Shown here piece after piece: positions 28,764 through 50,270 of a stretch of 64,000 nt of DNA. The notes beneath the pieces were generated by a model. The model saw only the letters and a list, made by a program, of their open reading frames with translations. It was not told the DNA's origin and did no database searches. This DNA is from Coriobacteriia bacterium (GTDB lineage: Bacteria > Actinomycetota > Coriobacteriia > Anaerosomatales > JAAXUF01): assembly GCA_038245725.1 (NCBI GenBank), contig JBBRSD010000008.1:79946-143945 (forward strand), read 5' to 3'. The position numbers and the translations under genes were made by a program. The first letter of the stretch is position 1; every line of letters starts with the position of its first letter.

Positions 28764-29609
28764 CTACGGCAGCTGCTCGACGACCTTGGCGAGCAGCGAC
28801 TTCAGCTGCGACGGAGAGCCGGAATCAGGTGACGCTTCGGCCGCGACCAGAACCGCGCCGCTCGTGAAACCGATGGCCGCGAACTCTCGTCCGTCGGTGC
28901 CGAAGTAGGTGGCGTGACCGTGGATCGACGACGAACTCGCACTGGAGGGATAGCGGTTCTTGACCTCGGCTTGAAGCGCCCGCTTCGCGTCGCTTGCCGT
29001 CCTGAACTGCTCGGCGACGACGACGAGCGTGCGCGCCGGATTCCCGGCCCCCGAGACGTACTCGCGGGAGACCGACAGCGGGTCGACGCCCGCCTTCGCC
29101 GCCGAGAACCCGGCGAGCGCATCGGGCACCCACCGGAGCAGCGAGCCCGCGGTCGCGGTCGGCTCGCCGGAGGGGGGCGTGGGCGTTGAGGGCCGTGGTG
29201 TCGACGGCGTTGGCTTGGACGGCGTCAGATCGGGAGTGACCTTCTGGCCCTTCGCAATCGCGTCGTGCTGCTGCTTGGCGCGACGGTAGGTTGGCGTGAT
29301 TGCGAGGAGCTGCTTGAGCTTGGCCTCGGCGAGCGGGAGGTTCCCGGCCGCGATTGCGGTCTGCACCTGGGCGTAGAGCGATGCGATCTGCGGGTTCGCG
29401 GCGGGCTGGGTGATCGTGACGACTCGGTAGGCGCCGGCGGTGTTGGCTGGCACGCGCACGGTGTGGATGTCCTCGGAGATGAGCTTGCCCTGGGAGTCGA
29501 CGATCCGCGTGCCGGTCTGCACCTCGACCATACGCTGGCAGGCCGGTGCGCCCAGGAGCGCGGTGGCGAGTACCACTGACAGCATGAGTGCGCCGCGTCG
29601 ACGCTTCAT
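28764..29609 (-). CDS. Lipoprotein with Pro/Thr/Ser linker, unknown function
   Basis: 281 aa. MKRRRGALMLSVVLATALLGAPAC lipobox. The ATG overlaps the upstream TGA (ATGA). The N-terminal 370 aa of the track ORF are Arg-rich shadow. Confidence 0.7.
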   Translation of the reverse strand: MKRRRGALMLSVVLATALLGAPACQRMVEVQTGTRIVDSQGKLISEDIHTVRVPANTAGAYRVVTITQPAANPQIASLYAQVQTAIAAGNLPLAEAKLKQLLAITPTYRRAKQQHDAIAKGQKVTPDLTPSKPTPSTPRPSTPTPPSGEPTATAGSLLRWVPDALAGFSAAKAGVDPLSVSREYVSGAGNPARTLVVVAEQFRTASDAKRALQAEVKNRYPSSASSSSIHGHATYFGTDGREFAAIGFTSGAVLVAAEASPDSGSPSQLKSLLAKVVEQLP

Positions 29610-31174
29610 TGCGAGACCTCCTCGTGCGTGAGTCCGATCGTCTGCCAGGGGCGCATCGCGGCCACGAGCGCGATTACGCCGAGCGCGGCCATGACCAGCG
29701 CCGCCATGCGTACGGAATCGACCCGCGCTTCGACCGCGAATCGAGAGTACTCCGTGCCGTAGGTCTGTTGCACGTTGGCCGGGACCCAGCTGTTCCACGT
29801 GTGCAGCGTTGTGGACGCGAGCGGAATCGTCGCCAGGCCGCACACGAGTGCGGCAACCGAGGCTGACAGCCAGCCCGCGGTTGGCGTGCCGGTTCGAGCC
29901 GCAACGATCGCGGCAAGCGTAAGCACGGCGGCAGCGAGCGCGAGCCAGCCTGCTGCCGATTCGGCGCCGACCATCGTCCACGTGGCACTGAACGTCTCGG
30001 CGGTGCCGCCCTGCGCTGTCGCGCTCAGAGCGGGCGTCGCGAGCGAGGCCACGCCGAGCAGACATGCCACGGCGGATAGCGCCAACGGAAGCCTGAGTGG
30101 ACGCGCGGCGGCGCGGCCAACCTCGGACTGCCGCCCGGCGAGCCCCACGACGACGAGACCGGCAATGACTACGGCCACACCGGTCGCGGCCGCGGACCAC
30201 GCGACGGGGCTCGGTCCGTACACCGAGCGCAGCTGTTCGACCCCGGCGAGCGCCATCACTACGATCGGGACCCCAAAGAGCGCCAGTGCCGAACGAGACA
30301 CGCCGCTCTCGGCGATGGAGCGCGTGAAGCCCAGCGAGAACACGGCGTACGCTGCCCCGAGGTAGATGCACGGGAGGAGCGCGCGCCACCCGATCGAGGC
30401 CTGCATCGGGAGCGAAGGCAGTGCGGCCAGGACGCCTGCAGTCGCAGCCGCTGACAGCGCGACGAGCGTCACGACCTTCGGCCCCGAGCGGCGCACAGCC
30501 CGTGCGAGCGCCGTCACGCCGACTGCGAAGAACACTCCTGCCACGAGCATGAGCGCTTCGCGCGCAGGAAACTTGGCGAACGGTGAGAAGGAACTGGGAC
30601 TCTCCCAGCTTGCAAGGAGACCTGCGGCCCCCGCGACACAGCCAAGCGCTCCCGCTGCGGCAGTGACGAGCGGCCGCTCGGCTGGATCGCCGAAAGCGAT
30701 CAGGACGCACGCGAGACCCCACACAGACGTCGTGAGGAACAGCGTGTCAGCACCGGATGGTGCGTCGGTAGCGCGCTGGGACAGCGCAATGAGGGGTGCC
30801 GCCCAAAACGCCAGAACGCCGCCGATGGCGGCCAACGCGAGCGAGGTCTTCTCGGCGGAGCGAATGCCGGGCAGGGCGTCTGCGGCCTGCACCGCGACGG
30901 CTATGAGGAGCGCCACGAGCGCGGCGCATCCGACGAGCACGGTGTCGGGCACGCTGTCCATGGCGACCGTCGTCACGACGAACGAGCCCGTCGCGCCGAG
31001 CAGCGCGGCAAGAACAGCGAGCAGCGATGTGGCGCGGCGCTCGGTCAAGACAGCTCCAACCAGCTTCGAGGTAGGACTGCCACCGATGGGAAGGGCCGAG
31101 GATTCCTCCCCGGCCCCTCCACGGTAGCAGAAGCACGCCGGCACGCGCGCTCGGCTTCTTACTTGTTGTGGCAC
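29606..31174 (-). CDS. Polytopic membrane protein (12 or more hydrophobic helices), family unresolved
   Basis: Ala/Gly/Leu-rich helices throughout. The longest ORF overlaps the cytochrome gene stop by 16 nt. The true start may be internal, for example TTG near 31048 after GGAG. Confidence 0.6.
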   Translation of the reverse strand: MPQQVRSRARVPACFCYRGGAGEESSALPIGGSPTSKLVGAVLTERRATSLLAVLAALLGATGSFVVTTVAMDSVPDTVLVGCAALVALLIAVAVQAADALPGIRSAEKTSLALAAIGGVLAFWAAPLIALSQRATDAPSGADTLFLTTSVWGLACVLIAFGDPAERPLVTAAAGALGCVAGAAGLLASWESPSSFSPFAKFPAREALMLVAGVFFAVGVTALARAVRRSGPKVVTLVALSAAATAGVLAALPSLPMQASIGWRALLPCIYLGAAYAVFSLGFTRSIAESGVSRSALALFGVPIVVMALAGVEQLRSVYGPSPVAWSAAATGVAVVIAGLVVVGLAGRQSEVGRAAARPLRLPLALSAVACLLGVASLATPALSATAQGGTAETFSATWTMVGAESAAGWLALAAAVLTLAAIVAARTGTPTAGWLSASVAALVCGLATIPLASTTLHTWNSWVPANVQQTYGTEYSRFAVEARVDSVRMAALVMAALGVIALVAAMRPWQTIGLTHEEVSQ

Positions 31175-32448
31175 CTCTCACAAACACCACGGTTGTCGTA
31201 GCGCAGAAGCGCTGACGGAACCGCGTTTTGGGCCACGAACGCATTGCGCGCGACGCCGTCGGTGTCAACGACCGAGGCAGCGCCATTGTTCGACGCGTAG
31301 CCGGTCATCGCAGCGGCGGTTCCGTGAGCTCGGTGGCACGTGAGGCACTCGAGCCAGTCCGACGAGCTGTTGCTCGGATTGCCCCGCTCAGAGATGGGGT
31401 GATCGAGCGGGAGCCCTGGGTCGGTGATGTTCATCGAGGTCTTATCGGCGCCCTGATACGAATCGAGCTCCACGTTGATCGGGTGCTTGTGACGAACCGC
31501 CAGACCTTCGCCGTCGCCAGCGTTGTAGGTGGCCGCCAGGCTCGTATACGTAGTATCTACGCCAAGACTGTTCGTCTTGGTGAACGTGGTCACCGGACCG
31601 AGATAGGTCGAGTGACAGCCGGAGCACCAGCCGCTCATGCCTTTGTCGACGTTGAGGCCGGTGGCTCCGTTTGCGAGCGTCGCCGAGGGCATGTCGTAGC
31701 CCTTCGCGTACATCGGCGTCGTGTAGTTCGGCTTGTAGTTCGGATACGGCTGGTGCAGGCGGAAGCCGTTGGTCGGCCAACCTGTCTCGACCGAGGAGAC
31801 GAACCCGTTCGGATCCGGGTCGGAGGGGTTGGCGGTCGGCGTGTACTCGCCGACGGCGTTGCCGTTGACCGCGGCCTTCAGGATGCGGTAGTTCGGAGAA
31901 CCGTGCGGATCGTGACAGGTGGTGCAGTCCATCTTGATGGCGTTGCCCGTACCGGTCATGTACGCGTTGGCTCCCTGGCCTGCGTTGCTGGAGTTGGCCG
32001 CGAATGTGTTGCCCGTGCCGAAGTACCCGCCTCCGTACGCGCCCCACGACGAGCCTTTGAACATGTGCGTCGAGGTGGTCGACGACTGGTCGAGCGAGTC
32101 GAACCCGCCGCCGTTTAGGACAGCGCCCTGCTGCCCGTAGGACGTACCTTCGTAGATGCCCTCCTGGACGTTGGTGTCCGCGCCCTGGCTGGTCGCATCG
32201 TGGCATGCATAGCAGAACTGCCACATCTCGGTCGCGGATGACACGAGCAACGCCGAGTGATTGGCGCCACCCGAGGAGTCCTGCCACGTGATCGAGGAAA
32301 CCGATGTGTGCGCACGATGACAGCCGGCGCAAGCGTCGGTGTCCGACACGTAGTTTCCGTGGATCGCGAAGTTCGCGAACGCGACGGAGGGCAGCAGGAA
32401 CACGGCTGCGACAAGGAGTACTGCAAGCGTGAATCTTCTGGTCTTCAT
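31159..32448 (-). CDS. Hexaheme c-type cytochrome, secreted or signal-anchored
   Basis: Signal peptide MKTRRFTLAVLLVAAVFLLPSVAFA. Six CxxCH motifs: CAGCH, CYACH, CTTCH, CSGCH, CLTCH, CERCH. Confidence 0.88.
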   Translation of the reverse strand: MKTRRFTLAVLLVAAVFLLPSVAFANFAIHGNYVSDTDACAGCHRAHTSVSSITWQDSSGGANHSALLVSSATEMWQFCYACHDATSQGADTNVQEGIYEGTSYGQQGAVLNGGGFDSLDQSSTTSTHMFKGSSWGAYGGGYFGTGNTFAANSSNAGQGANAYMTGTGNAIKMDCTTCHDPHGSPNYRILKAAVNGNAVGEYTPTANPSDPDPNGFVSSVETGWPTNGFRLHQPYPNYKPNYTTPMYAKGYDMPSATLANGATGLNVDKGMSGWCSGCHSTYLGPVTTFTKTNSLGVDTTYTSLAATYNAGDGEGLAVRHKHPINVELDSYQGADKTSMNITDPGLPLDHPISERGNPSNSSSDWLECLTCHRAHGTAAAMTGYASNNGAASVVDTDGVARNAFVAQNAVPSALLRYDNRGVCERCHNK

Positions 32449-32454
32449 GTTGTC

Positions 32455-33384
32455 CTACACCTCCCCGCTGATTGATGCGGCCTTTTCGGCCTTTACTTCC
32501 GACTTGCGCTTGGCAAGCATCGCGAAACCGCCGAGCAGAAGCGTCGGGACCAGCATGCCACCAGTGAGAGCGCTGCTCGCCATGGGGACGAGGTGGTCTT
32601 CCACGAACGGATCCGCCTTCGGAGGCGTGAGCATGACCTTGCTGCTCGCCCAGAACATCGATCCATTGCCGATCCAGTTCTGCGTGCCATTGGAGAGCAC
32701 GTAGCCGTTGATCGGGTCGTTCAGGTACGCGAGGATGTTGGCCTTCGAGTCCCACTTCATCGCCTTGGCGGGGCACGTCGATACGCACGCCGGCTCGTGG
32801 GCGAGTTCAGGAACGATCGGATCCGGAAGTGTGCCCACGCTGAGCGTCAGGTCACTCACGAAGTTCCCGCCCACCTTGCGTGCGCGGGTCGGAAGCGCCG
32901 TGCTCGGATCGACGACGCCATCGGCGCCGGCTCGACCGGTGCACAGGGTGCACTTGTTCATCTTCGTCTGGCCTGCGTAGGTGCCGCTTTCATACGCGAC
33001 ACCGACCTTGGGATATCCACCGCGCTGGCAGCCGATCTCGCACGGCTTGGGCCCTGGCCCGGTCTTGCACAGGCTGGGACTGCACTTGGCGTTGTTGACG
33101 CTGATCGCACCCGTCGGCTCCTTCTTGATGGCCCCGAAAGGACACTCATAGGCGCAGGGGGGATCGGGACATTGCCAGCACGAGAACCGCATGAACGGAC
33201 CCATGTCGCCACGCTTGAGGCTCTTGATCGCAAGCCGTTGGCGCGGGTTGACGATGGACCGCTGCGGCTTCACGTCAGCGATACTCGTCGGGAGCTTGAG
33301 GTTCCACTCGCGCTTGCACGCCGAGACGCATCCGTTGCAGCGCATGCACTTATCGGCATCTTGCAGAATCGCCATAACAGTCAT
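32455..33384 (-). CDS. fdhB: FdnH-like 4x[4Fe-4S] electron-transfer subunit with C-terminal TM anchor
   Basis: CMRCNGCVSAC, CWQCPDPPCAYECP, CTLC and CVSTCP clusters. C-terminal helix GGMLVPTLLLGGFAML is followed by KRK. Confidence 0.85.
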   Translation of the reverse strand: MTVMAILQDADKCMRCNGCVSACKREWNLKLPTSIADVKPQRSIVNPRQRLAIKSLKRGDMGPFMRFSCWQCPDPPCAYECPFGAIKKEPTGAISVNNAKCSPSLCKTGPGPKPCEIGCQRGGYPKVGVAYESGTYAGQTKMNKCTLCTGRAGADGVVDPSTALPTRARKVGGNFVSDLTLSVGTLPDPIVPELAHEPACVSTCPAKAMKWDSKANILAYLNDPINGYVLSNGTQNWIGNGSMFWASSKVMLTPPKADPFVEDHLVPMASSALTGGMLVPTLLLGGFAMLAKRKSEVKAEKAASISGEV

Positions 33385-33397
33385 TGGTCACACCTCC

Positions 33398-36300
33398 CTA
33401 CATCTTCTCGATCTTGCAGAGACACGCTTTCGATTCGGGAATCATGGAGTTCGCGTCCCCGGCGTCGATGCACAGGTCGTTGGCGCGAGAGCCGGTCGAC
33501 AGACCCTTCTCACCCCAGTGCCACGGGATCGCGACTACGCCTGCTGCGACGCGCTGGTTACCTTGCAGTCCGCTGCCGACACGGGCACGGAAGCCGTCGC
33601 CGTACGCAGCCCTCGGGTAGTCGCCCCAAACGGTGGCGTCCGAACGCGCAGTGCGGACCCGAACCATGTCACCATCGCTGATGCCGAACGAGCGAGCATC
33701 GGCTGAGTTGAGCTCGATCCACGGCTCCGGCTCCAACTCGACGTTGGACCAGTTGTTGCGGGTGATCGGTCCACCCTGGAAGTGCTCGACGCACCGGATG
33801 GTGGTGAGCGTCAGCGGGTAGCCCGATGCGGGAACGTCCCTGCCCGCGATCTGTGTGTCGACGAAGCTCAGCTCGAAAGCCGCCCCGCCCTTCGTGTTGC
33901 GGCCCCATGCAGCTGCAAGCGCAGCCTTCGGGGTCTCGTACGGCTCGACGTGGGCCGGGAAACGACCGGCGTACGTGATGGTGCCGCCGCCGGGCTTCGG
34001 AACGAAGTGCGGGCTGCCGGCGTTGAGCGTAGCAGCAAGGACGACGTCAGGCTTGTCCACGAGCGGGTGATTGTGGCGGTACCAGCGTGAGTAGTTCAAG
34101 GTCGCTGCGTTCGCGGGCACGAAGAGGTGCGAGCATGAATCGGGCTCCATGAAGTAGTCTGTGACCTCTGCGGGGATATCGGCGTTGTTGTAGAACACGC
34201 GGCGGTTCACAAGCCACGCGTAGCCCCAGCCGTGGTAGGCGAAGGTGCCGCCATCGTTGGTGTTGTCGCGGCTCTTCGCGCGGTTCTTGACCGCCCAGCT
34301 CGCCTGCAGCGACCCCTTGTTGGCGGTAGCCCACGGTCCGCCTGTGGCGCTCGTGGCTTCCGCGTTGTACGCCCCGGTGTAGATCCAGATCGTGCCACCG
34401 GCCGCGCTCGGGGAGTTCATCTCCCGGAACACCTTCTCAGTGACCCACTCGGAACCGGTGACCGTGGCGCTCAGGTCGTACGTGACGGGATCCGTGACGT
34501 TTGCGCGAACGTGAGCCAGTTCGGCGGTGCCGCTGGCGAGGTCATACGCCGTGCCCGGGGTCCAGTCGTACGGCGTGCCGTACAGGGTGTCGTAGACGCC
34601 TCCGCTGAGTCCCAGAGCGGTCCACTTGGCCTGGATGTGCGAGAACGCACCGGCTGTCTCGAGGGCCTTTGCAAGACGGAGCAGCAGCTCCATGTCGTCC
34701 TTGCTGTTGCCCAGAGGAGCGGCAGCGCGGTAGCGCCACTGCAGCGTGCGACCGGAGTTGGTCGAGCTGCCGGCGTGCTCCACGTGCGCACTTGCGGGAA
34801 GCAGGTAGGTGACCGAGCCGTCCTTGCGATCGCACGCAGCCGTCTCGTTCTCGAACATGTCGGTGCAGACGAGAAGGTCGATGTTCTTGAGCCCCTGGCG
34901 AACCTTGCCCTGGTTCGGCTCGGTGATTGCTGGGTTCTGACCCCACACGACGGCTGCCTTCGTCACGGTGCCCGCGGCCATCGCGCGGAACATCGTCATG
35001 TGGCTGTCGCCGTTGCCCTTGGGCCACAGGTCGTAGATGCCATCGACGATCGTCTTGCGAGCCGACAGCGTCGTTGCGGCCAGCGCCTCTGCGTACCCAC
35101 CGAAGAACTTCAGCGTCATGTTGAAGAAACCACGCTGCTGCAAGCCGGTCGCACCGAGACCTGCGGCACCCGTGCTGACGTTGTACGCATCGTCGTGCGA
35201 TCCGTCCATGAGCGACCGAACGGTCCCGCTGAAGTCGGTCGTGCCGGTGGTACCGGTCAACGGGTTGCCCCACAGGCCATCCATGTAGTCGCCGAACGTG
35301 CTTCCGACGCCAGGGTTGCTCGAGTACGCGGGAATGTTGCCGTTAAGCAGCCCTAGGTCGGTCGAACCCTGAACGTTGTGGATGCCGCGCAGCGCGTTGA
35401 TGCCGCCGCCGGCGCGTCCCATGTTGCCCATGAGCGTCTGAATGACCGCGAACGACTTCACGTTCTGACTGCCGGTCGTGTGCTGCGTGATGCCCATGGC
35501 GTACAGCATCGTCAGGCACTTGTAGCCGGCGGCAGTGGGATCTTGCGAACCAGCAGCGCCGACGGCTGCCGCAACGCTCGAGCAACGGCTGTTGTCGATG
35601 AAGTATTTCACCAGGTCGAGAATCTCGGTCATGGTGCAGCCGGCGACGTCCGCCACCACGCTCAGCGTGTACGGATCCACGTGCGCCTTGAGGCGGTTGT
35701 AGACGGTGTTCACATCGGAAAGACGGCAGTCGGCTACCTTGACGGGGAAGTTCGAGATCAGCTGGTTCGCGGTCTCGCCCCCGACCGGCGTTGCACCGGT
35801 GTTGGTGACGGTGGCCCGCTGGTAGTCCGTACCCGTCGCATTCACGAGGAAGCGAGCGTCGGAGTACTTCGAGCTGCCGGCGACCGTCGCTGAGAGCGAG
35901 CTTGCGTGCGTCGCGTCACCATCGGTGTAGAAGCTTCCGTTGCCGGTCTGGTTCAGGAAGTCGTAGAACTTGGTGACGGCACCCGCGGGCGCGGTCCCGT
36001 TGGGGCTCGTGCCTTCCATCTGCGAGATGATCTCGCGGACGATACCGTTGATGAGCGCGATATCGCTACCGGGACGGATACGGATGTACTGGTCGGCCTG
36101 CAGCGCTGTACGCGTCTTGCGAGGGTCGACCACGACGAGCTTGGCACCCTTGGCACGGGCGCGGTTGATGTGAGCCATGCACGCCGGGTGGTTCTCGCTC
36201 GGGTTAGCTCCCCATACGAGAACGTTTGATGCGTTGCCGATGTCCGACCAATGGTTGGTCATCGAGCCTCGTCCGAATGCAGCCGCCAGACCGGCGACCG

Positions 36301-36958
36301 TGGACGAGTGTCAAATACGGGCCTGATGCTCGACGTTGCTCGTACCGAAGTTCGCGATCATCTTGCGATACACATAGTTCGGCTCGTTGTTCATGTGCGA
36401 TGAGCCGAAGAACGCGACGCCCTTCGACTGGTTCGTCGCAGGAAGCGCACCGCGCGCGGTGACAAGACCTGTCGCGATCTCGCTCATGGCCGTGTCGAGC
36501 GACATCTTGCCCCACGGCCCGTTACCTGTCCGCTTGTAGGCGACGCCCGTGGCGTCGTATGCGGGGTCGTAGGCGAACGCGGAATCCGCGGGATGTGTCC
36601 CGGAGAATGCGCCGAGCCTGCGCGAGTTGTTCACGAGCTGCAGCGAACCCGCGCCCTTTGCGCACAGACCGCCTGAGTTCATGGGCGACTCGAAGTCACC
36701 GTAGATGTCGACGACCTTGCCGGTGTTCGCACCGGTCAGAGCGGTCACGACCCGCTGTCCGCAACTCGCCGAGCAGTACGGACACGTGGTGTTCGTGACC
36801 CTGTAGTTGATGGCATCGCTCTCATAGGCGCTCGCCTTGGCAGCGTCGAACGCCACGTCCATTCCGCAGCCAACGACCGCGCCGGCAACCGCCGCGGTCT
36901 TGAGAAACGCGCGTCGCGTCATGCCGTCAAACGATTGCCCCTTATCTTTAGTTGCCAT
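33398..36958 (-). CDS. fdhA: Tat-exported FdnG-like formate dehydrogenase catalytic subunit, selenocysteine at codon 216 (in-frame TGA 36311..36313)
   Basis: Track ORFs 36311..36958 and 33398..36262 are in the same frame (3561 nt in total). Reading through gives [32 protein letters not shown], which is the FDH Sec-His motif. Tat signal TRRAFLK. N-terminal FeS motif CPYCSASC...LCAKG. GGINALRGIHNVQG block. Confidence 0.85.
36268..36313 (-). other. UGA(Sec) recoding site with SECIS-like hairpin
   Basis: RNA reads UGA CA CUCGUCC A CGGUCGCC GGUCU GGCGGCUG CAUUC GGACGAG. Lower stem is 7 bp, upper stem is 8 bp with G.U pairs, and the apical loop is GGUCU about 16-20 nt after the UGA. This resembles E. 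coli fdhF as I recall it. Confidence 0.7.
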
Positions 36959-37073
36959 ACCCCCGTCCCTTCTCTTGGGAGATGTGTTGGCGAAACTTGG
37001 GCTCCTACCTCATGTGAGGCTCGTTGACCGCTCCCGGTTCGCCTCCTTCCGCCATGACGGTCAGACGATTGGG

Positions 37074-37130
37074 AGCAAAAATACAAAGAACCGGCACACA
37101 CCAAGGCACAAGCCTCAGCCGTGAACCGGT
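37074..37130 (-). terminator. Intrinsic-terminator-like hairpin plus U tract in the fdh leader
   Basis: Minus-strand RNA reads ACCGGUUCACGG...GGC-UUGU-GCC...GUGUGCCGGU followed by UCUUUGUAUUUUUG. It lies between the riboswitch-like element and the fdhA start. Confidence 0.5.
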
Positions 37131-37218
37131 CCATTTTGTATGCACGTTGATCTTCCCCTACCCCGTGGAAAGCGCCACCCAGCCCAAAGGCAAACCCCCC
37201 ACAGGGGCCTTTGGTGGT

Positions 37219-37322
37219 GTGGTCTCCTTTCCAAACGGGAGGCGACCGCGTTTCCGCTGGCACCCATCGGCCCGAGAACCATAGCTGCCGCAAGGCGCCG
37301 TAGATTGAAGGGCTCGGAGATC
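37219..37322 (-). promoter_or_regulatory. Moco (molybdenum/tungsten cofactor) riboswitch-like element, copy 1
   Basis: RNA reads AUCUCCGAGCCC...GGGCCGAUGGGUGCCAGCG-GAAA-CGCGGUCGCCUCCCGUUUGGAAAGGAGAC. The conserved blocks CUCCGAG, GCCUCCC and GGAAAGGAG match the Moco motif as I remember it. Its paralogue at 50135..50240 shows compensatory changes. Confidence 0.65.
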
Positions 37323-37405
37323 ATCTGTGTCGCGCTTTCAATGTGGTTCGCCTTGAGCTACCGGGCCCGAGGCTAGCCCGCACGGAGTGCGGCCTCCACG
37401 ATTTC

Positions 37406-37434
37406 TACACTATACGCCTTGCTGACCTAGGTCA
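37406..37434 (-). promoter_or_regulatory. Sigma70-like promoter candidate for the fdh operon
   Basis: Minus strand reads TTGACC, 15 nt, TATAGT (or 17 nt to TAGTGT), directly after the NHL gene stop and about 85 nt upstream of the riboswitch-like element. Confidence 0.45.
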
Positions 37435-37443
37435 AATGTGGCA

Positions 37444-39024
37444 TTACTTGCCCTCTGAGCTGCGATAATCTCGCTTCAGGTAGATCTCGCCGAAGTCCTT
37501 GGCGTCAATCACGCGGACCTCAGCAAGCATCGCCGAAATGCGCAGGTCGTGGTCCTCGGTGCCGAGTGCCTTTGCTCGCAAGGACATGGCGAGAAGTACC
37601 GAGACCGGCGCGGCGACCTTGATCCGCTCCCCGATCGCACGGGCGTCGGACTCGGAGTACTCCTCGAACGAGATGAGCTCACCGAGGTCGACGCCGTCGA
37701 CGATCTTGCCCTCATACAGCTCGCGGTCGGTGAGCGGCGCGATGAGGCGCACGCTCGGCTTCTTCGCAACCGACGGAATCTCGCCAAGCGTCGAAAGCTC
37801 GTCGATGAAGTCGGGCGTGACGATGATGCGGACCTTGCGGCGGGCGAGAAGCAGGAGGGGCAGCAAGAGGAACGGCAGCAAGCACAGCGCGAGGAGCCAC
37901 TGCAACGCAGGCTTCACAGACGCCAGATTCGGCAGTTGGGCGATGGGCCATCCCCACACCTGGACCTGGTCGTTCTCCCGATCCGAAATGTAGATCCTCC
38001 CACCCCGATCGATGCTGATGTCGTTGGGGTAGTTGAACTGCCCGGGTCCGAATCCGCGACTGCCGAAATCCGTGAGCACCTTGCCCTTGAGGTCGTACAC
38101 ACCGATCGTGTGCGCGAGCGCGTCCGCTACGTAGACGCGCTCCTTCGCGTCGATAGCGATGCCGCGCGGCACACCACTCGTGTCGAGGAAGCGCACGAAC
38201 GTGCCTGTTGAGTCGAACACCTGCACTCGCTGGTTATCGCCATCGGATACATACACGTCGCCGTTGGATGCGACGGCCACCCCATTCGGGAATAGGAAGC
38301 TGCCGGGCGACTCCTGCAACGAGTTGACCTGCGCCGTCTTGCCGAGGGTGACCGTCCGGCTCCCATCAGCCGAGAAGTAGATGAGCCGATGCTTGTTCGT
38401 CTGTCCGACATCGGTGACCCTGAGGCCGCCGGTTGCGTCGAAAGTGAACGCGAGGGGCGTCCACTTCAGCGCCTCGTGTTTCGGCGTGAACTTGCGCAAG
38501 TACTTGCCTTGCAGGTCGAAGACGTAGATGCAACGGTGATAGTGCTCCGACACCCAGACCTCGTTACCCCTGACCACGAGATGCACCGGGTTGATCAGTG
38601 CGCCATCGGCGGTCTTCGTGAACGAGAAGAGGTAGCGCCCGGCGTTCGTGAACACACTCACGCGGCGATGGCCGAAGTCGACGACGTACACGCGGCCGTC
38701 GGCCGCGATGCCCACGCCCACCGGGCGGCTGAGCTCGCCGGCCCCGTTGCCTGAGATCGAGTACAGGTACTGCGGCGGCGCGATATAGTCGCTGCCAGGA
38801 GGGGCGATGCCCAAGCTCGGCAGTCGGCGGTTCGCATTGAAGTAGTAGGCGAAGTACGCGAGCAGAGCAAGCAGAAGCGTCAGAAGCGTCAGCAGAATGA
38901 TGCGGCGACGGCGTTCGCGTGACGTCAGTCGCTCCGGGTTCGACTGCGGACGCCCCCGCCCTGGCCCCTCGCCGAGAGGTTCGACCGGAGATTCTGCGAC
39001 GCCGGGCGTCTCCTCATGAGCCAT
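37444..39024 (-). CDS. Two-TM membrane protein with extracytoplasmic NHL-repeat beta-propeller and cytoplasmic C-terminal domain
   Basis: Cytoplasmic Arg-rich N-terminus, TM helix (IILLTLLTLLLALLAYFAYY), about six NHL-type repeats (P.G.A.D..GRVYV.D..N.RV.VF), a second TM helix (WLLALCLLPFLLLPLLLLA), then about 135 aa. Confidence 0.75.
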   Translation of the reverse strand: MAHEETPGVAESPVEPLGEGPGRGRPQSNPERLTSRERRRRIILLTLLTLLLALLAYFAYYFNANRRLPSLGIAPPGSDYIAPPQYLYSISGNGAGELSRPVGVGIAADGRVYVVDFGHRRVSVFTNAGRYLFSFTKTADGALINPVHLVVRGNEVWVSEHYHRCIYVFDLQGKYLRKFTPKHEALKWTPLAFTFDATGGLRVTDVGQTNKHRLIYFSADGSRTVTLGKTAQVNSLQESPGSFLFPNGVAVASNGDVYVSDGDNQRVQVFDSTGTFVRFLDTSGVPRGIAIDAKERVYVADALAHTIGVYDLKGKVLTDFGSRGFGPGQFNYPNDISIDRGGRIYISDRENDQVQVWGWPIAQLPNLASVKPALQWLLALCLLPFLLLPLLLLARRKVRIIVTPDFIDELSTLGEIPSVAKKPSVRLIAPLTDRELYEGKIVDGVDLGELISFEEYSESDARAIGERIKVAAPVSVLLAMSLRAKALGTEDHDLRISAMLAEVRVIDAKDFGEIYLKRDYRSSEGK

Positions 39025-40015
39025 GCTGCACCCGCTTCAGTCCAGCGGCGGCCGTCGTGTTGCCGGGATCGATCAGCAGGACCTTCTGGTAGATCGCTGC
39101 GGCCTTCGAGGGCTTCTTCAGCTTCTCGTAGAGCCGGGCCGTCAGCAGCAGCGCATCAACCGACTGCGGATCCAGCGCGACGGCGACGCGCGCTTGCGCG
39201 AGCGCGGCACTTGCGTCGGTGGACGCAAGCTTGTTTGCGTTTGCGAGCCGATCCGTCGACGACCCGAGCTTCTCGAGCGCTTGCCTCGGCTCGTCTTTGT
39301 AAGGCGCCGAGTCCGACGAGGTTCGGAAGTGCTCCGCGGCCCCGGCGATGTCACCGTCAGCAAGCAGAAGAACGCCGTAGGCGTAGTTGGCCTCGGGCAT
39401 CTTTGGGTCGAACTGCAATGTGTACTCGAGCGTTTCCCGATACGCGTCCGGCACCCCAAGGTGCTGATAGCACACCGCCAGCGCATAGGACGTATCCGAG
39501 GCGTCCTGCTTCAGTCTGAGGGCGCTTTTGAGGAAGCCGGCCGCGCCCGCGTAGTCCTTCTGTTCCATCCGCGCGACGCCCGTGTAGTAGTAGGCGACCT
39601 CGAGCGGGCTGTTCGCTGCGCTCGCCGGAGTCTTGGCCTCGGTGAGAGCGATCACCTGACGGAAGTACTTCTCGCCGTTCTTCCAGTCCTTCTGCTTCAT
39701 GTACTCGAAGCCGATCCCGCCAAGCGCCGGGACGAATTCCTTGTTGAGCTTCAGGATCTCCTGATACTGCTGGACGGCTTCGCCATCACGGCCAGCGACC
39801 GCGAGCGCCTGAGCCAGCCGCATGCGGGTGTCGATGTCGCTCGGCTTCTGCTTGAGCTTCTGCTTGAAGCCCTCGATTTCGCGCGATGCCGGAGACGCGT
39901 TGCGCTGGTCGTTGCTATTCGTCCAGGCCGCGTAGCCAAGATAAGCACCGACAGCGATGATCGCGATGATCACAATCGTAATGGCCGCGTCGAGCGGCCG
40001 TACCCGCTTCAACAC
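39014..40015 (-). CDS. N-terminally anchored TPR-repeat protein
   Basis: TM helix AAITIVIIAIIAVGAYLGYAAW followed by about 7 TPR-like units. Overlaps the NHL gene by 11 nt. GTG start after AAGGGAGAA. Confidence 0.75.
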   Translation of the reverse strand: MLKRVRPLDAAITIVIIAIIAVGAYLGYAAWTNSNDQRNASPASREIEGFKQKLKQKPSDIDTRMRLAQALAVAGRDGEAVQQYQEILKLNKEFVPALGGIGFEYMKQKDWKNGEKYFRQVIALTEAKTPASAANSPLEVAYYYTGVARMEQKDYAGAAGFLKSALRLKQDASDTSYALAVCYQHLGVPDAYRETLEYTLQFDPKMPEANYAYGVLLLADGDIAGAAEHFRTSSDSAPYKDEPRQALEKLGSSTDRLANANKLASTDASAALAQARVAVALDPQSVDALLLTARLYEKLKKPSKAAAIYQKVLLIDPGNTTAAAGLKRVQHGS

Positions 40016-40132: not shown

Positions 40133-41341
40133 TCAGCGTCCGTGTTCGGAGCGCGTGAGCTCCTCGCCGAGAACAGCGAGCGCTTCGAGAGCCATGTCGA
40201 CATCACTCTCCGTGACGCCGAAACCGACGCTCAGGCGCAGGGCGCCACACTCGATCGTGCCGAGCACCCGATGTGCCCACGGGGCGCAGTGCAGCCCGGA
40301 GCGCACCGCGATGCCGTACCTGCGATCGAGCGCGAATGCGAGCCGGTCGGCCGGGACATGCTCGTGCACGATCGAGACGACCGGAACGCGCGGCTCGTCG
40401 GCTGCGGGTCCGAGAACCCGGAAGCCCTGGATGCCCGCCAGCCCGCCGAGCAACCGCCGCGTGAGCGCCGTCTCGCGCGCTCGCTGCGTCTCGCCGTGAT
40501 CGCGGATCCACCGCGCCGCGGCGCCCAGCCCGATCACTCCGGGCACATTCGGCGTGCCGGCCTCGTAGCGGTCCGGCCGCCCGCGCGGGCCTATGGGGTC
40601 CTCGCTCTCGCCCCCACCGGTGCCGCCCATGACGAGTTCGGCGGGCTCGCACTGGGGAGAGAGGTAGAGCACGCCCACGCCCTGCGGACCGAGCAGCCCT
40701 TTGTGCCCGGCGCACGCCCAAGCGTCCACGCCAAGCGTAGCGAGATCGACATCGAGGTGCCCTCCGGCCTGCGCGCCGTCGACGATCATGAGCGCGCCGC
40801 GATCGTGAGCGATGTCTGCGAGATCGGCCACCGGCTGGATCGCGCCGGTCACGTTGCCGGCGTGCTGGCAGACGACCGCCCGAGTGGGAGCTGCGGCGAC
40901 AAGCGCCTCGACCGAGTGCAGGTCGACGCAGCCGGCGTCGTCCGCCTCGGCGAGCACGACCTCGACGCCTCGCGACGCGAGTACGTTGAGCGGGCGGGCG
41001 ACCGCGTTGTGCTCGACGGGACCCACGACGACTCGGTCGCCCGGCGAGAGCAGTCCGAACAGCACGAGGTTGATCGCCTGGGTGCACCCCGGCTGGAACA
41101 GCAGGTTCTTCGCGTCTGCCACGCCGAGAAGTGCCGCAATATCATGCCGCGCACCGTGCATGGCGCGCGCGGTGTCGATCGCGAGCCGGTAGGCGCCGCG
41201 GCCGGGGTTGCCGCCGAGTTCCGTGAGCGCGCGCTCCATCGCCTCCACCACCTCGGGCGGCTTGGGCCACGAGGTCGCAGCGTGGTCGAGGTAGATCGTG
41301 CGCTGCGGCGCCGCGGGCGCGGTGTTCTCGGCGGGGGTCAT
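40133..41341 (-). CDS. Class-V aminotransferase-fold cysteine desulfurase / selenocysteine lyase-like protein
   Basis: IYLDHAATSWP, PLP-lysine context CAGHKGLLGPQG, and active-site RSGLHCAPWAH. Confidence 0.8.
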   Translation of the reverse strand: MTPAENTAPAAPQRTIYLDHAATSWPKPPEVVEAMERALTELGGNPGRGAYRLAIDTARAMHGARHDIAALLGVADAKNLLFQPGCTQAINLVLFGLLSPGDRVVVGPVEHNAVARPLNVLASRGVEVVLAEADDAGCVDLHSVEALVAAAPTRAVVCQHAGNVTGAIQPVADLADIAHDRGALMIVDGAQAGGHLDVDLATLGVDAWACAGHKGLLGPQGVGVLYLSPQCEPAELVMGGTGGGESEDPIGPRGRPDRYEAGTPNVPGVIGLGAAARWIRDHGETQRARETALTRRLLGGLAGIQGFRVLGPAADEPRVPVVSIVHEHVPADRLAFALDRRYGIAVRSGLHCAPWAHRVLGTIECGALRLSVGFGVTESDVDMALEALAVLGEELTRSEHGR

Positions 41342-41344
41342 CTG

Positions 41345-41818
41345 CTAGTGGCCTCCGCCGTGCATCATGTCGACGGCATGCTCGAACTGGTCGGCGACGA
41401 AGCCGAAGCATTCGCGCGCGGCTTTCTCGGAGCCGGGCAGATTGATGACGAGCGTGGTGCCGAGCATCGCCGCGGTGCCGCGCGAGAGCATTGCGCGTCC
41501 TGTGACCTTGAGCGACTCGGCGCGGATGTGCTCGGCGATGCCGGGAACGACGCGGTGGCACACGGCGAGCGTTGCCTCAGGGGTGACGTCGCGCGGCCCC
41601 ACTCCGGTGCCCCCACACGTGAGCACGATGTCGGCGCCGGCCTCCGCCATCGTGATGATCGAGGCCTGGATCGCCGTGGAATCGTCGGTACAGACCTCGT
41701 AGACGGCAACGCGCCAGCCGCGATTGCTGATGAGTGCCGATAGCGCGCGCCCGGCGGTGTCTTCAGCCTCGCCGCGCGTGTCCGAGCAGGTCAGCACACC
41801 GATGTTGAGCTCAGCCAT
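41345..41818 (-). CDS. mog: MoaB/MogA-family molybdopterin adenylyltransferase-like protein
   Basis: IGVLTCSD...VLTCGGTGVGPRDVTPEAT...LPGSEKAA. Start at MAELNIG overlaps the MOSC gene stop by 8 nt. Confidence 0.85.
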   Translation of the reverse strand: MAELNIGVLTCSDTRGEAEDTAGRALSALISNRGWRVAVYEVCTDDSTAIQASIITMAEAGADIVLTCGGTGVGPRDVTPEATLAVCHRVVPGIAEHIRAESLKVTGRAMLSRGTAAMLGTTLVINLPGSEKAARECFGFVADQFEHAVDMMHGGGH

Positions 41819-42386
41819 CGGTGCCCTCCTCCTTCTCCGCCTTGCGGCACTCGTTCGCGGCACGCACCGATTCGGACTCGGCGAGCGACTCCTCGGGCGA
41901 GCGCGTGCACGTGCCGTCGCCCAGCGACGCGACCGCTACCGTGTCGCCGACCGCGACGTCGCCGGCCTTCCGCACGACCGCGAACACGCCTTCGCGCGGC
42001 ATCACGCAATCGCCTGCCTGGTAGAAGATCGCGCACTTGGTATGGCAGACCTTGCCGATCTGCGATACCTCGAGGACCACATCGTCGCCCACATGCACGA
42101 TCGAACCGACAGGTAGCGTCATGACGTCGAGGCCCTGCGTGGTGATGTTCTCGGCGAAGTCGCCAGGACCGACATCGAGACCCTTGGCGCACATCGAATC
42201 GATCGATTCCTGCGCCAGCAGCGAGACCTGGCGATGCCAGTCGCCCGCGTGCGCGTCGCCCTCAAACCCACGGTCGAGCACGAGCGTTCCGCGCTCGAAT
42301 CGCTGCTTGCGCACCGTCTTCTTCTCGGAGAGGTTCACCGAGACGACCCTGCCGGTGCGGCCGGTGGACCCCGCTTCCTCGTTCAT
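41811..42386 (-). CDS. MOSC-domain protein
   Basis: [12 protein letters not shown]...GFEGDAHAG...RQVSLL...GDFAENITT...[11 protein letters not shown] pattern. ATGA overlap with the moaC stop. Confidence 0.8.
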
Positions 42387-42877
42387 CGCTGCTCCTCTCG
42401 CGTCCAGGTTCCGGAGTTCCCGCCCTCTTTGGAGAGCAGCTTGATGTCGCCAAGAACCATACCGCGGTCGACCGCTTTGCACATGTCGTAGACGACGAGC
42501 GCGGCGACCGACGCGGCCGTGAGCGCTTCCATCTCGACGCCGGTCTTGCCGTCGGTCTCGGCGGTGGCGGTGATTCGCACGCCGGGCGCGTCGCCGTACA
42601 CCGGCTCAAGCTCGACGGCCACGTGCGTGAGCGAGAGCGGGTGGCATAGCGGGATGAGCTCACTCGCGCGCTTGGCGGCCATGATGCCGCCGATGCGTGC
42701 CGCCGCGAACACGTCGCCCTTGGGCGCGGCGCCCTCGGCGATCATCGCGAGCGTCGTCGGCTTCATCGAAACGAAACCGCCCGCCGCCGCACGCCGGTGT
42801 GTGACCGGCTTGGCCGCGACGTCGACCATGCGCGCGTGACCAGCCTCGTCGAGATGCGTGAGTCGCTCGTCGGACAT
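42383..42877 (-). CDS. moaC: Cyclic pyranopterin monophosphate synthase
   Basis: [20 protein letters not shown]...[20 protein letters not shown] and EMEALTA..VAALTVYDM-type motifs. Confidence 0.93.
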
Positions 42878-42879
42878 GA

Positions 42880-43908
42880 TCAGCCTCCGATCTGTGACAT
42901 GTGGCGGTCCGTGCCGATCTTCTCGGCGTGGCCCTCGGGCTTGATGCGCAGTGCGAGTTCCACGAGCGCGCGGACATCGTCGTCGGTGCCGCCACGCAGG
43001 GCGCTGCGGACATCGAGCTCCTCATCGCTGAAGAGGCAGGGTCGCAGGCGACCGTCCGCGGTCAGACGCAGGCGGTTGCACTCCGCGCAGAAGTGGTGCG
43101 AGAGCGGCGAGATGACGCCCACCGTGCCCTGTGCGCCCGCGAACCGGTAGTAGCGCGCTGGCCCCCATCCGCCGGGTGCATCGTCCTTGCCGACCGGCTC
43201 GAGCTCGCCGAGACCCGCCGAGACACCCTTGGCTGAGAGCAGCTCGATGATCTCCTCGCTCGGGATGATGTCGTCGCGCGTCCAGCCGGTGCCGTGCTCG
43301 GAGCTGCAACCCCCGCCCTCTTCGGCTTCGCCGACCGGCATGTACTCGATGAAGCGCACGTGCAGCGGGCGGTCGAGCGTCATCTTCGCGAAGCCGAGCA
43401 GGTCCTGCTCAAGCGAGCGCACGACGACGACGTTGAGCTTGACCGGCCCGAAGCCGGCCTCGAATGCGGCGTCGAGCCCGGCGAGCGCGTCCTCGAGCCG
43501 GCCGCCTCGCGTGATTCGGGCGTAGGCCTCGGGATCGAGCGAGTCGAGGCTGATGTTGACGCGCTCGAGGCCCGCGTCACGGAGCTCGCTGGCGAAGCGC
43601 GGCAAGAGCGTCGCGTTCGTGGTGAGAGCAAGGCTTTCGACGCCGTCGATCTCGCTCAGCCGACGGACGAAGTCGGGCACGCCGCGGCGAACGAGCGGCT
43701 CGCCGCCGGTCAGCCGGACCTTGCGAATGCCTTCGCTCACCGCGATGCGGGTGAAACGCAGGATCTCATCGTAGGAAAGGATCTCGGACCGGTCCTTCCA
43801 CGTCACACCCTCCTCGGGCATGCAGTAGACGCAGCGCAGGTTGCAGCGGTCGGTGAGCGATATCCGCAGGTAGTCGATGCGGCGACCGTGGGAGTCCGTG
43901 CCGTGCAT
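42880..43908 (-). CDS. moaA: GTP 3',8-cyclase (radical SAM)
   Basis: [19 protein letters not shown] radical-SAM motif, and C-terminal [19 protein letters not shown]. The ATG overlaps the mobB TGA by 1 nt. Confidence 0.93.
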
Positions 43909-44450
43909 CAGGCGTCGCCTCCGCCGAGGAATCGCGCGCCGATGAGGTCCGCCACGCCCGCATAGCCGTCGTCGAGGTCGAACACGGGAACGCCCGCGGC
44001 TGCCGTCTGCTCGGCGAGCTCGGCGTTGTCGGTGACGAGCGCGAGCATCTCGGCCGGCTCGCACACGAGGGTCTGCGAGCGCTCGCGCCGGCTGATCTCG
44101 ATGCGGTTGCGGCCTTCGCGCTTGTAGCCTTCGGTGATGAGTATGTCGGCACCGGCGCCGTGGGCGATCTGGGCGATGTCATCCAGCGGCATCTCCTGCT
44201 CCACGTCGTGGATGAGCGCGAACTTCTCGGGAGAAGAGACCATCGTCACTGCGGCACCCGCCCGCGCGTGGCGGTACGAGTCCTTGCCGGGGACGTCGAT
44301 GTCGTAGTCGTGGATGTGGTGCTTGACGGTCGCGACGCGCACGCCACGCTCCGCCAGCTCGCGGATCAGCTTCTCGAGGAAGGTGGTCTTGCCGGAGTCG
44401 CCCTTCCCCACTACCGAGACGATCGGCACCGTGTTCGGTGCTGGCGTCAT
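43908..44450 (-). CDS. mobB: Molybdopterin-guanine dinucleotide biosynthesis adapter MobB
   Basis: P-loop VVGKGDSGKTTFLEKLI and VATVKHH. Confidence 0.85.
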   Translation of the reverse strand: MTPAPNTVPIVSVVGKGDSGKTTFLEKLIRELAERGVRVATVKHHIHDYDIDVPGKDSYRHARAGAAVTMVSSPEKFALIHDVEQEMPLDDIAQIAHGAGADILITEGYKREGRNRIEISRRERSQTLVCEPAEMLALVTDNAELAEQTAAAGVPVFDLDDGYAGVADLIGARFLGGGDA

Positions 44451-44476
44451 GCTTACCCCTAACTGGTCGAGGCCGC

Positions 44477-44695
44477 TTAGAAGCAGCCGAGGTCGCAGTT
44501 GTGTACTCGGATACCAGCCAGGTCTGCCGCCGCGCCCGCGACCTTGTACGGAACGCCCGCGTCTTCGGCGAACTTGCGCAAGACCGGACAGGTGACCTTG
44601 CCGTCCACGGCTTTGGCCGCGATGGCGGCCTTCATCTCGTCGGTGACCTGCGCCGTCCAGCGCGGATCGAGTTCCTTGGGTGCCTTGTCGCTCAT
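44477..44695 (-). CDS. 72-aa conserved-looking orphan protein ending in CDLGCF
   Basis: The ATG overlaps the moeA TGA (ATGA). Product is MSDKAPKELDPRWTAQVTDEMKAAIAAKAVDGKVTCPVLRKFAEDAGVPYKVAGAAADLAGIRVHNCDLGCF. The upstream 138 codons of the track ORF are Arg-rich shadow over moeA. Confidence 0.55.
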   Translation of the reverse strand: MSDKAPKELDPRWTAQVTDEMKAAIAAKAVDGKVTCPVLRKFAEDAGVPYKVAGAAADLAGIRVHNCDLGCF

Positions 44696-45951
44696 GGTGT
44701 GCCCTCCTCCATATCGAGCCGGACGCAGTCGACCTGCGTTCCGGCGGTAAAGACGCCGTCGCCTTCGGGAAGTACGACGAAGCAGTTGCCGCGATGTGCC
44801 GCCGTCAGCAACGCGGATGATTGGCTGCCCGAGAGTGACGCGACGAAGCCGTCGCCAGCGGGATCGTGCTCCACGCGTCCGCGAAGGTAGTAGCGCCGGT
44901 CCTGCTTCTTCTTCACGTCGTGGGAGAGCCGTGCGACGGTCACCGGCCGCGCCAGCGCCGAGAAGCCCTGCATGACGCGGAGCGCAGGGCGCACGAAGAT
45001 CTCGAAGCCGACGTAGGTGCTCGTGGGGTTGCCTGGCAGACCGAAGAACGGCACGCCGTGAATGGTGCCGAGCGTCTGCGGGTTGCCGGGACGCATCTTC
45101 ACCTTGCAAAACGTGAGCTCGCCCATCTCCTCGAGCACCGGCTTCACGAAGTCGAAGTCACCTACCGAGACGCCACCGCTCGTGAGGATGAAGTCGGTCT
45201 GGCTCGCGGCGAGCGCGAAGGCCGCTCGGGTGGCGTCCATGTCGTCGGCGACGGTGGGGTAGCGCACGGGGATGGCGCCGGCCGCAAGTACCTGCGCGGC
45301 GATCGAGTAGCTGTTGGAGTTGCGGATCTTGCCGGGGCCGGGCTTCTCGGCGACCTCGACGAGTTCGCTGCCGGTGGAGAGGACGGCTACGCGCGGCCGG
45401 CGGTAGACGCTCACGGTGTCGTGCCCGGTCGAGGCGAGCAGCCCGATCGCTGCCGGCCCGATCACGTCGCCGGCGGTCAGCACGACATCGCCTGCGCGCA
45501 CCTCTTCCCCGCGGCAGCGGATATGCTCGCCGAAGCGCGGCTCGATCTCGAACGCAACGCGCGAGCCGATGCCGCCATCGCCCGACACCGTATGCGTGCG
45601 CTCGACCATAACGACGCTGTCGGCGCCCGCGGGCACGGCCGCGCCGGTCATGATGCGCGCGGCCTGGCCGGGACCGACGTCGATGCCGGCCACATCGTCG
45701 CCGGCGGCGATGTGCGCCATCACGTCGAGCTCGACGGGAGAGGTCTCGCTCGCGCCCGCCAGGTCGGCGGCGCGCATGGCGAAGCCGTCCATCGCCGAGT
45801 TGTCGAAGGGCGCGACGTCGATGTCGCTGACCGCATCCACTGCAAGCACGCGGTGAAGCGCGTCGAGCAGCGAGACGCGCTCGGCCGGAAGCGGTGCGAC
45901 GAACCCGAGCACGAGTTCGAACGCTTGCTCGACGGTCATCGTTTCAGGCAT
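44692..45951 (-). CDS. moeA: Molybdopterin molybdotransferase (or tungstotransferase)
   Basis: Typical MoeA blocks: PFDNSAMDGFA, RIMTGA.VP.GAD, SGGVSVGDFD, PGNP. Confidence 0.92.
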   Translation of the reverse strand: MPETMTVEQAFELVLGFVAPLPAERVSLLDALHRVLAVDAVSDIDVAPFDNSAMDGFAMRAADLAGASETSPVELDVMAHIAAGDDVAGIDVGPGQAARIMTGAAVPAGADSVVMVERTHTVSGDGGIGSRVAFEIEPRFGEHIRCRGEEVRAGDVVLTAGDVIGPAAIGLLASTGHDTVSVYRRPRVAVLSTGSELVEVAEKPGPGKIRNSNSYSIAAQVLAAGAIPVRYPTVADDMDATRAAFALAASQTDFILTSGGVSVGDFDFVKPVLEEMGELTFCKVKMRPGNPQTLGTIHGVPFFGLPGNPTSTYVGFEIFVRPALRVMQGFSALARPVTVARLSHDVKKKQDRRYYLRGRVEHDPAGDGFVASLSGSQSSALLTAAHRGNCFVVLPEGDGVFTAGTQVDCVRLDMEEGTP

Positions 45952-45954
45952 GGT

Positions 45955-49215: not shown

Positions 49216-49238
49216 GCTGCCGCCCGTCGGCCGGAGGT

Positions 49239-50129: not shown

Positions 50130-50134
50130 AACGG

Positions 50135-50240: not shown

Positions 50241-50270
50241 TGTGGACCGCGATTCTTCGCGGCACGCCCT

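Follow-up and report, generated by a model that had tools for sequence, protein, structure and literature searches.

A split formate dehydrogenase-type gene of uncultured Coriobacteriia with a probable selenocysteine codon and SECIS hairpin

We analysed a 64-kb stretch (the window, whose first letter is position 1) of a Coriobacteriia metagenome-assembled genome (MAG; contig JBBRSD010000008.1, positions 79,946 to 143,945), which carries on its minus strand a formate dehydrogenase (FDH)-type gene, fdhA, interrupted by an in-frame TGA. The most reasonable reading, to which we assign a probability of about 0.9, is that the open reading frames (ORFs) on either side of the TGA are one gene for an extracytoplasmic formate dehydrogenase or CO2 reductase with a Mo/W-bis-pyranopterin guanine dinucleotide (bis-PGD) cofactor, that UGA 36311..36313 is recoded as selenocysteine (Sec), and that the hairpin downstream of it is a bacterial selenocysteine insertion sequence (SECIS). 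Sec-containing formate dehydrogenases and SECIS elements are textbook biology; read this way, fdhA is a divergent FDH-type gene whose UGA is a Sec recoding site of the canonical bacterial kind, and the mechanism is not new. Coordinates are collected in Table 1.

Results

One reading frame across an internal TGA

An initial annotation made from the letters alone had proposed that the ORFs 36311..36958 (215 aa) and 33398..36262 (954 aa) lie in one frame and are parted only by the TGA and 48 nt, and both the ORF list and the minus-strand sequence agree. The codons CAG GCC CGT ATT precede the TGA, and the interval behind it opens with CAC TCG TCC and runs through GGA CGA GGC TCG to ATG ACC, with the ATG at 36262. 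Single-frame translation of 33398..36958 gives 1187 codons with one internal stop and a product of 1186 aa, and returns the same read-through peptide as had been proposed. Automatic annotation had been expected to report two fragments, and public gene calls indeed list fdhA as two proteins of 215 and 954 aa. A protein search found more than 1000 relatives of FdhA, the closest of which are, with few exceptions, entered as C-terminal fragments of ~900-1050 aa that start just after the TGA and correspond to 80% query cover; named homologues in the databases are called 'molybdopterin-dependent oxidoreductase' and come from Coriobacteriia or Actinomycetota MAGs.

TGA is the commonest ordinary stop in the window, ending 18 of its 32 confident genes, so that recoding must be local and the code standard; on the same count we ruled out a global reassignment of TGA. 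Screening the window for further TGA-split coding pairs returned only the ordinary stop of the MobA-FdhD gene, followed in frame by moeA, in a screen insensitive enough to miss the fdhA TGA itself at the thresholds used.

The hairpin downstream of the UGA

Folding of the 67 nt from 36316 down to 36250 reproduced the two-tier hairpin with a GGUCU loop that had been described 3' of the UGA, with a basal helix, a 7-bp lower stem and an 8-bp upper stem. Its minimum free energy is -27.7 kcal/mol (z = -2.9), a stability reached by 1 of 200 dinucleotide shuffles, and 97.3% of 2000 synonymous recodings that keep the peptide and are drawn from the local codon usage fold less stably. Other 54-nt windows of the GC-rich fdhA (64% GC) fold as well as the SECIS region. 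By thermodynamics alone the hairpin is thus only moderately unusual and not convincing, and it is the comparative data that carry weight.

The architecture of the hairpin is more telling in its likeness to a known element. Its GGUCU loop begins 18 nt beyond the UGA, an offset that the GUCU of E. coli fdnG shares within the same two-tier arrangement. Indeed, the Rfam model SECIS_3 (RF01989) matches 36258..36316 from end to end with 43.2 bits (E = 3e-8 in a 1.3-kb search). The fold and this sub-threshold match, together with the conservation, the frozen synonymous sites and the covariation at columns 21/33 described below, bear out the hairpin as first annotated.

Conservation of the UGA and the hairpin across related loci

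We scanned one genome per species and obtained 73 related loci (L001-L073), nearly all from uncultured Coriobacteriia/Actinomycetota, including Anaerosomatales and Coriobacteriaceae sp. EMTCatB1. The TGA region is covered by 67 of them, which come from different MAG species, represent 56 distinct sequences and share 40-67% protein identity. All 67 have TGA at the Sec codon. When the 56 distinct sequences were folded one by one, each formed an apical stem of 6-10 bp with a loop, either GGUCU at 18 nt or GUCU at 19 nt beyond the UGA. Homologues with the same break and no conserved hairpin would have spoken against the initial annotation, and the opposite is seen.

Codon usage in this region carries the mark of two constraints. 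Inside the element, codons for Gly (GGT, 67/67), Ala (GCC, 65/65) and His (CAC, 67/67) are frozen and rare codons, GGA and CGA, make up part of the lower stem, whereas invariant Gly codons outside it, 11 codons upstream and 34 codons downstream, use all four codons. At codons +2, +4, +8, +12, +14 and +15 the amino acid is kept under synonymous variation. Synonymous change under a kept peptide between the TGA and the ATG indicates that this stretch is translated.

Pairing is conserved beyond what the peptide asks for. The upper-stem pair at columns 21/33 occurs as G-C, as C-G (in this window) or as U-A, and the covariation score exceeds that of 500/500 column shuffles and of all slid controls. 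In addition, a subgroup of loci reads GLG-R-T/A/P-F (mostly GLGRTF) after the Sec in place of GLAAAF, with AAA replaced by GRT; at the DNA level one base was inserted and a later one deleted, and this +1/-1 frameshift pair leaves GGCCGC, the 3' strand of the upper stem, intact. The RNA structure thus appears to have been kept at the cost of the peptide. The covariance model that we built from the codon alignment (R1) did not re-align this subgroup with a gap, so its figure of 77% paired for the upper stem is an underestimate, and the question was settled by the per-sequence folding. Judged from these alignments, the hairpin is under selection for RNA structure beyond coding constraint.

Cysteine-containing homologues provide a natural control. 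P0048 and P0050 are full-length, continuous proteins with Cys at the Sec position; the DNA of P0048 (L075) has TGC preceded by ATC, GGG instead of GGT, and no hairpin, and a homologue from Altarchaeum (L063) likewise has TGC and no hairpin. We regard the comparative evidence, that is, the TGA, the hairpin, the frozen codons and the Cys controls, as decisive for the predicted Sec.

These data also bear on whether the TGA could be a true stop, with fdhA a pseudogene, an assembly error or two genes, one for a 215-aa Fe-S domain protein and the other for a 954-aa protein whose translation restarts at ATG 36262. In favour of this, both pieces pass as genes with gene callers, stops in this genome are usually TGA, and the GGACGAGG stretch 5-12 nt upstream of ATG 36262 resembles a ribosome-binding site. 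That putative site is, however, the 3' strand of the conserved lower SECIS stem, the in-frame TGA recurs in 67/67 species-level relatives with both flanks intact, the 16 codons from TGA to ATG encode sequence homologous to the FDH active site and have diverged through synonymous substitutions, and the Cys homologues are continuous proteins. We consider a true stop to be extremely improbable.

The two codons just 5' of the UGA (36314..36319 and homologous positions in L001-L073) show a bias of their own. The Ile codon before it is ATA in 53 loci, ATT in 13 and ATC in none, though ATC dominates other Ile columns, and Arg at -2 is CGT in 57/67 loci; the Cys homologue has ATC for this Ile. The codon context 5' of the UGA seems to be under selection. 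By eye we found no clear covariation between the choice of ATA or ATT and codon +16, which would extend the basal helix. Separately, one MAG contig (L008, positions 4425 and 10710) carries two Sec-FDH N-terminal regions, each with its own TGA and SECIS, which points to paralogous Sec-FDH copies in some genomes.

Active site and subfamily of FdhA

FdhA contains the Pfam domains Molybdop_Fe4S4 (PF04879), Molybdopterin (PF00384) and Molydop_binding (PF01568), all above Pfam cutoffs, behind an N-terminal twin-arginine motif (RRAFLK, residues 15-20). Its top PDB matches are alpha subunits of Sec-FDHs: the W-FDH of D. gigas (1h0h, E = 4.6e-102), FdhA of D. vulgaris (~1e-100) and E. coli FdnG (1e-82). 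The TGA column falls on the Sec (X) of 1h0h (HQARI-X-HSATV), and alignment with E. coli FdnG (34.4% identity over 983 columns) places U216 on U196 (QARV-U-HGPTV), with the His adjacent in both, so that the Sec-His pair does sit where the initial annotation had put it, at the metal-ligand site of FdnG/FdhF enzymes. The same two alignments show the 16 codons from the TGA to the Met of the second ORF to be homologous to FDH active-site sequence; the view of this stretch as conserved FDH sequence is upheld by that homology and by its synonymous variation. The active-site Arg is kept as well: GGGINALRGIHNVQGSTD aligns with GGGVNALRGEANVQGSTD, the motif ALRG..NVQG shows no variation among 32 clade members, and the Arg of GGGINALRGIHNVQG is retained in alignments with solved Sec-FDH structures. 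Sec216 would ligate the metal, and His217 and the Arg of ALRGIHNVQG would complete the formate site.

At 1186 aa, FdhA exceeds E. coli FdnG (1015 aa) by 171 aa, close to the ~170 aa first estimated; the idea of one insertion after INGIVREI did not hold, as the extra residues occur in nine or more segments of 9-24 aa each and just 23 of them directly follow INGIVREIIS. Residues ~313-478, after the INGI... helix, form a hypervariable region in the clade, and some homologues carry whole extra domains there (~300 aa with a propeller-like look in P0103, repeated PF27730 Ig-like units in P0064). The long insert of P0048 lies further along, between the RGIHNVQG and LQQ[KR]GF motifs.

The best NCBIfam model for FdhA is FDH-N alpha (TIGR01553), with 461.7 bits against a cutoff of 814.2, followed by the actinobacterial FDH model NF041513 (386.9 against 1400) and FdhF-type alpha (TIGR01591; 345.7 against 666), both likewise under their cutoffs. 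On these scores FdhA is within the superfamily lineage, outside all curated FDH equivalogs, as a divergent subfamily. The enzyme might accordingly be a Sec enzyme of the FDH lineage whose physiological substrate is something other than formate or CO2, a different cell-surface Mo/W oxidoreductase wired to multihaem cytochromes. Besides the sub-cutoff scores, the ~170 extra residues, the clade-specific hypervariable inserts and the unusual partners (a hexahaem cytochrome, NHL and tetratricopeptide repeat (TPR) proteins, and a protein resembling drug/metabolite transporters (DMT) in place of FdnI) would suit such an enzyme. FdhA nevertheless keeps all the residues by which an FDH active site is defined, namely the Sec-His pair and the Arg, FdhD, the FDH-specific sulfurtransferase, is encoded nearby, and the orthologous cluster of EMTCatB1 was treated as an FDH and is highly expressed on a CO2-reducing biocathode (PMC7943316). 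Another substrate is, on balance, unlikely, and FdhA probably acts on formate or CO2.

Selenocysteine machinery and contrary evidence

Several observations weigh against a Sec-containing formate dehydrogenase. The stability of the hairpin, taken by itself, lies only at the 2.7th percentile of synonymous recodings. Its SECIS_3 score of 43.2 bits is under the gathering score of 63, which is why the match goes unlisted in a gathering-threshold scan. FdhA scores under the NCBIfam FDH equivalog cutoffs, and its substrate is deduced from three active-site residues. The genes of the cluster include no recognisable cytochrome b (FdnI) or NrfD-type quinone subunit. Finally, none of selA, selB, selC and selD was found in the 64-kb window or in ~1 Mb of related loci. 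Neither the window nor 60 related loci contain tRNA genes, the ~40 window ORFs that were profile-scanned gave no match to Sel families, and tblastn with an E. coli SelD query returned nothing from the window or the related loci, negatives that do not extend to other parts of the genome.

That no sel genes were found in the sequence covered would fit a UGA that is read through without SelB-delivered Sec, for example as Cys or Trp by near-cognate suppression, with a hairpin that just slows termination; natural Cys variants of the enzyme exist, too. Simple suppression, however, would need no such sequence-specific element, and the GGUCU loop and its spacing match the SelB-binding element of E. 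coli fdnG, the loop being invariant across the clade. The Sec-decoding trait is, moreover, documented in Actinobacteria (PMC5322559). We therefore hold non-Sec read-through to be very unlikely. A UGA and SECIS kept over such divergence are hard to explain without a Sec-decoding trait, and the fdhA transcript would be decoded with the help of SelB: the hairpin would bring SelB-GTP-Sec-tRNA(Sec) to the ribosome, where release factor 2 (RF2) would be its competitor.

Riboswitches and cofactor supply

The 5' leader of fdhA contains a molybdenum/tungsten cofactor (Moco/Tuco) riboswitch aptamer, and a second aptamer of this family precedes the gene for TupA, a tungstate-binding protein. The P3 stem is deleted in both alignments to RF01055, and the leader riboswitch stands at the same place in 10/10 related loci sampled. 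The P3-less Moco riboswitch variant correlates with use of the tungsten cofactor (Regulski et al., PMC2408646), and the metal of FdhA is more probably W than Mo. The aptamer in the leader would gate expression of fdhA.

Between the TPR gene and the second riboswitch lies a cofactor supply block. Its cysteine desulfurase family protein (40133..41341, minus strand) scores 359 bits against TIGR01977 (cutoff 377) and 290 bits against the selenocysteine lyase SclA; its MobA-FdhD fusion (45955..47376, minus strand) has 473 aa. These two proteins may serve the sulfuration and maturation of the FDH cofactor.

The conserved gene cluster

On the minus strand, 28764..40015 holds the order TPR - NHL - fdhA(Sec) - Fe-S subunit - hexahaem cytochrome - 512-aa membrane protein - lipoprotein, which is kept in 54-69 of the 73 loci. 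The Fe-S subunit finds its best NCBIfam match in HybA (54 bits), ahead of FDH-beta (22 bits). The 512-aa membrane protein has no Pfam or NCBIfam match and 63 database relatives; its high-confidence AlphaFold2 model (predicted local distance difference test score, pLDDT, 88.9) matches YddG (5i20) and LicB (7paf) in Foldseek, with a target-normalised template-modelling (TM) score of 0.79, and has a small beta domain in the predicted C-terminal extension. We had considered this protein as a quinone-reactive NrfD or cytochrome-b anchor and rejected it because the predicted fold is that of a DMT transporter. The E. coli DMT exporter gene yddG adjoins fdnG, which is probably a coincidence.

With no cytochrome b or NrfD-type subunit recognisable, we infer that electrons would pass from the N-terminal [4Fe-4S] cluster of FdhA to the four-cluster Fe-S subunit, then to the hexahaem cytochrome c, and on to further cytochromes or external partners. 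Elsewhere, electron-exchange clusters likewise combine multihaem cytochromes with NHL and TPR proteins (PMC9769857; bioRxiv 10.1101/2022.05.06.490989). In four loci (L020, L021, L028 and L033) the NHL/TPR genes follow the lipoprotein gene instead, which suggests a functional linkage.

Table 1. Positions of fdhA, its predicted recoding signals and the surrounding genes in the window; loci with the GLGRTF-type sequence are listed by handle.
Feature	Position	Strand	Description and evidence
fdhA, 1186-aa predicted catalytic subunit (FDH type, Sec, Mo/W-bis-PGD, exported by twin-arginine translocation, TAT)	33398..36958	-	single-frame translation; Pfam, NCBIfam and PDB matches
UGA codon, probable selenocysteine, residue 216	36311..36313	-	aligns with Sec of 1h0h and U196 of FdnG; TGA in 67/67 related loci; TGC in Cys homologues
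Putative SECIS element	36262..36314	-	basal helix; lower stem 36302..36308 with 36268..36274; upper stem 36293..36300 with 36280..36287; apical loop GGUCU 36288..36292
GLGRTF-type loci	L023, L024, L026, L028-L035, L040, L043, L048, L050, L052-L054, L056, L058, L064, L066, L068, L071		region ~5947-6015
Moco/Tuco riboswitch aptamer, P3-less, fdhA 5' leader	37208..37331	-	RF01055, 59.4 bits (gathering 36)
Second P3-less Moco riboswitch, precedes tupA	50121..50246	-	RF01055, 61.8 bits (gathering 36)
Cofactor supply block	40133..50246	-	cysteine desulfurase/SclA-like, MogA-like, MOSC, MoaC, MoaA, MobB, MoeA, MobA-FdhD fusion, TupCB, TupA
Lipoprotein-like protein, 281 aa, last gene of the conserved cluster	28764..29609	-	public gene call; signal and lipobox-like N-terminus; syntenic in 54/73 loci
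Polytopic membrane protein, 512 aa, predicted DMT-transporter fold with C-terminal extension	29606..31144	-	AlphaFold2 and Foldseek; syntenic in 58/73 loci
Hexahaem c-type cytochrome, 429 aa, six CXXCH, signal peptide	31159..32448	-	Paired_CXXCH_1; syntenic in 68/73 loci
Four-cluster Fe-S subunit, 309 aa, 16 Cys, C-terminal membrane helix	32455..33384	-	Fer4_11, Fer4_7; syntenic in 69/73 loci
NHL beta-propeller	37444..39024	-	Pfam/NCBIfam; upstream of riboswitch; 66/73 loci
TPR protein	39014..40015	-	Pfam/NCBIfam; upstream of riboswitch; 58/73 loci

Relation to known systems

The periplasmic W/Mo Sec-FDHs of Desulfovibrio (D. gigas FdhAB, 1h0h; D. vulgaris FdhAB, 6sdr) are the best sequence matches (E ~1e-100). 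Like the FdhA of the window, they have a TAT signal, a [4Fe-4S] domain at the N-terminus, the Sec-His pair and the catalytic Arg, and both probably prefer tungsten. Compared with them, the FdhA of the window is ~170-200 aa longer with many insertions, its beta subunit is weakly FdhB-like and tail-anchored, the cluster adds a hexahaem cytochrome, a DMT-like protein, a lipoprotein, NHL and TPR proteins, and the host is a monoderm actinobacterium. E. coli FdnGHI (1kqf) and the SECIS of fdnG are alike in the Sec position (U216/U196), the two-tier hairpin, the GUCU offset and the end-to-end match to SECIS_3, whereas the window has neither the FdnI cytochrome b nor an FdnH-type beta subunit and carries a riboswitch in the leader.

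A further close counterpart is the FDH and multihaem cytochrome cluster of Coriobacteriaceae sp. EMTCatB1 (1c0406-1c0408; locus L056), which has the same gene order, TGA and hairpin as the window. On an electromethanogenic (methane-producing) cathode, its FDH genes and the multihaem cytochrome gene next to them rank among those with the highest expression (PMC7943316). The FDH of Parvivirga hydrogeniphila was cited as two adjacent proteins, MCL4079382-3, in the Anaerosomatales paper (PMC9686372), and a term search of that paper and of the EMTCatB1 paper (PMC7943316) did not find the word 'selenocysteine'.

The value of the assignment is mainly corrective, as the split annotation extends across a whole clade of uncultured Actinomycetota. 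With the Sec-FDH stored as fragments, metabolic reconstructions of OPB41/Anaerosomatales-type Actinomycetota under-report selenium use and complete FDH. The riboswitch, TupA, FdhD, the hexahaem cytochrome and the NHL/TPR proteins point to a W/Se-dependent, cytochrome-wired FDH, in bacteria of a lineage that has been linked to electrode and iron respiration, which is of relevance to electrosynthesis and to subsurface formate and CO2 cycling. The conserved tungsten/selenium/cytochrome module is the part that might repay more work.

More tentatively, the cluster could be a distinct, undescribed module confined to uncultured or newly cultured Coriobacteriia/Actinomycetota, a possibility that we think doubtful but worth stating. 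It would consist of a W/Se-dependent FDH/CO2 reductase on the outer face of a monoderm cell, with a hexahaem cytochrome, NHL, TPR, DMT-fold and lipoprotein partners and a Tuco-type riboswitch, and would link formate/CO2 to electron exchange outside the cell, be it with minerals, electrodes or syntrophic partners, and not to the quinone pool. The loop after the INGI... helix would then be a hypervariable docking site that has taken up whole extra domains in some lineages.

Other features of the window

An hgcA/hgcB pair lies on the plus strand at 19722..20897 and 20897..21334, with a 1-nt overlap. HgcA, which contains the NVWCA motif, reaches 383 bits with NF040863 (cutoff 275), and HgcB is a two-[4Fe-4S] ferredoxin with a Cys-rich tail; the pair gives the MAG mercury-methylation potential. 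At 59849..61748 on the minus strand, a class D sortase (LPxTA-specific) adjoins a surface protein that combines an ice-binding-like domain with an LPXTA-type sorting signal, and a PASTA kinase is encoded at 14..1774. The sortase/surface protein pair and the PASTA kinase fit a monoderm actinobacterial host.

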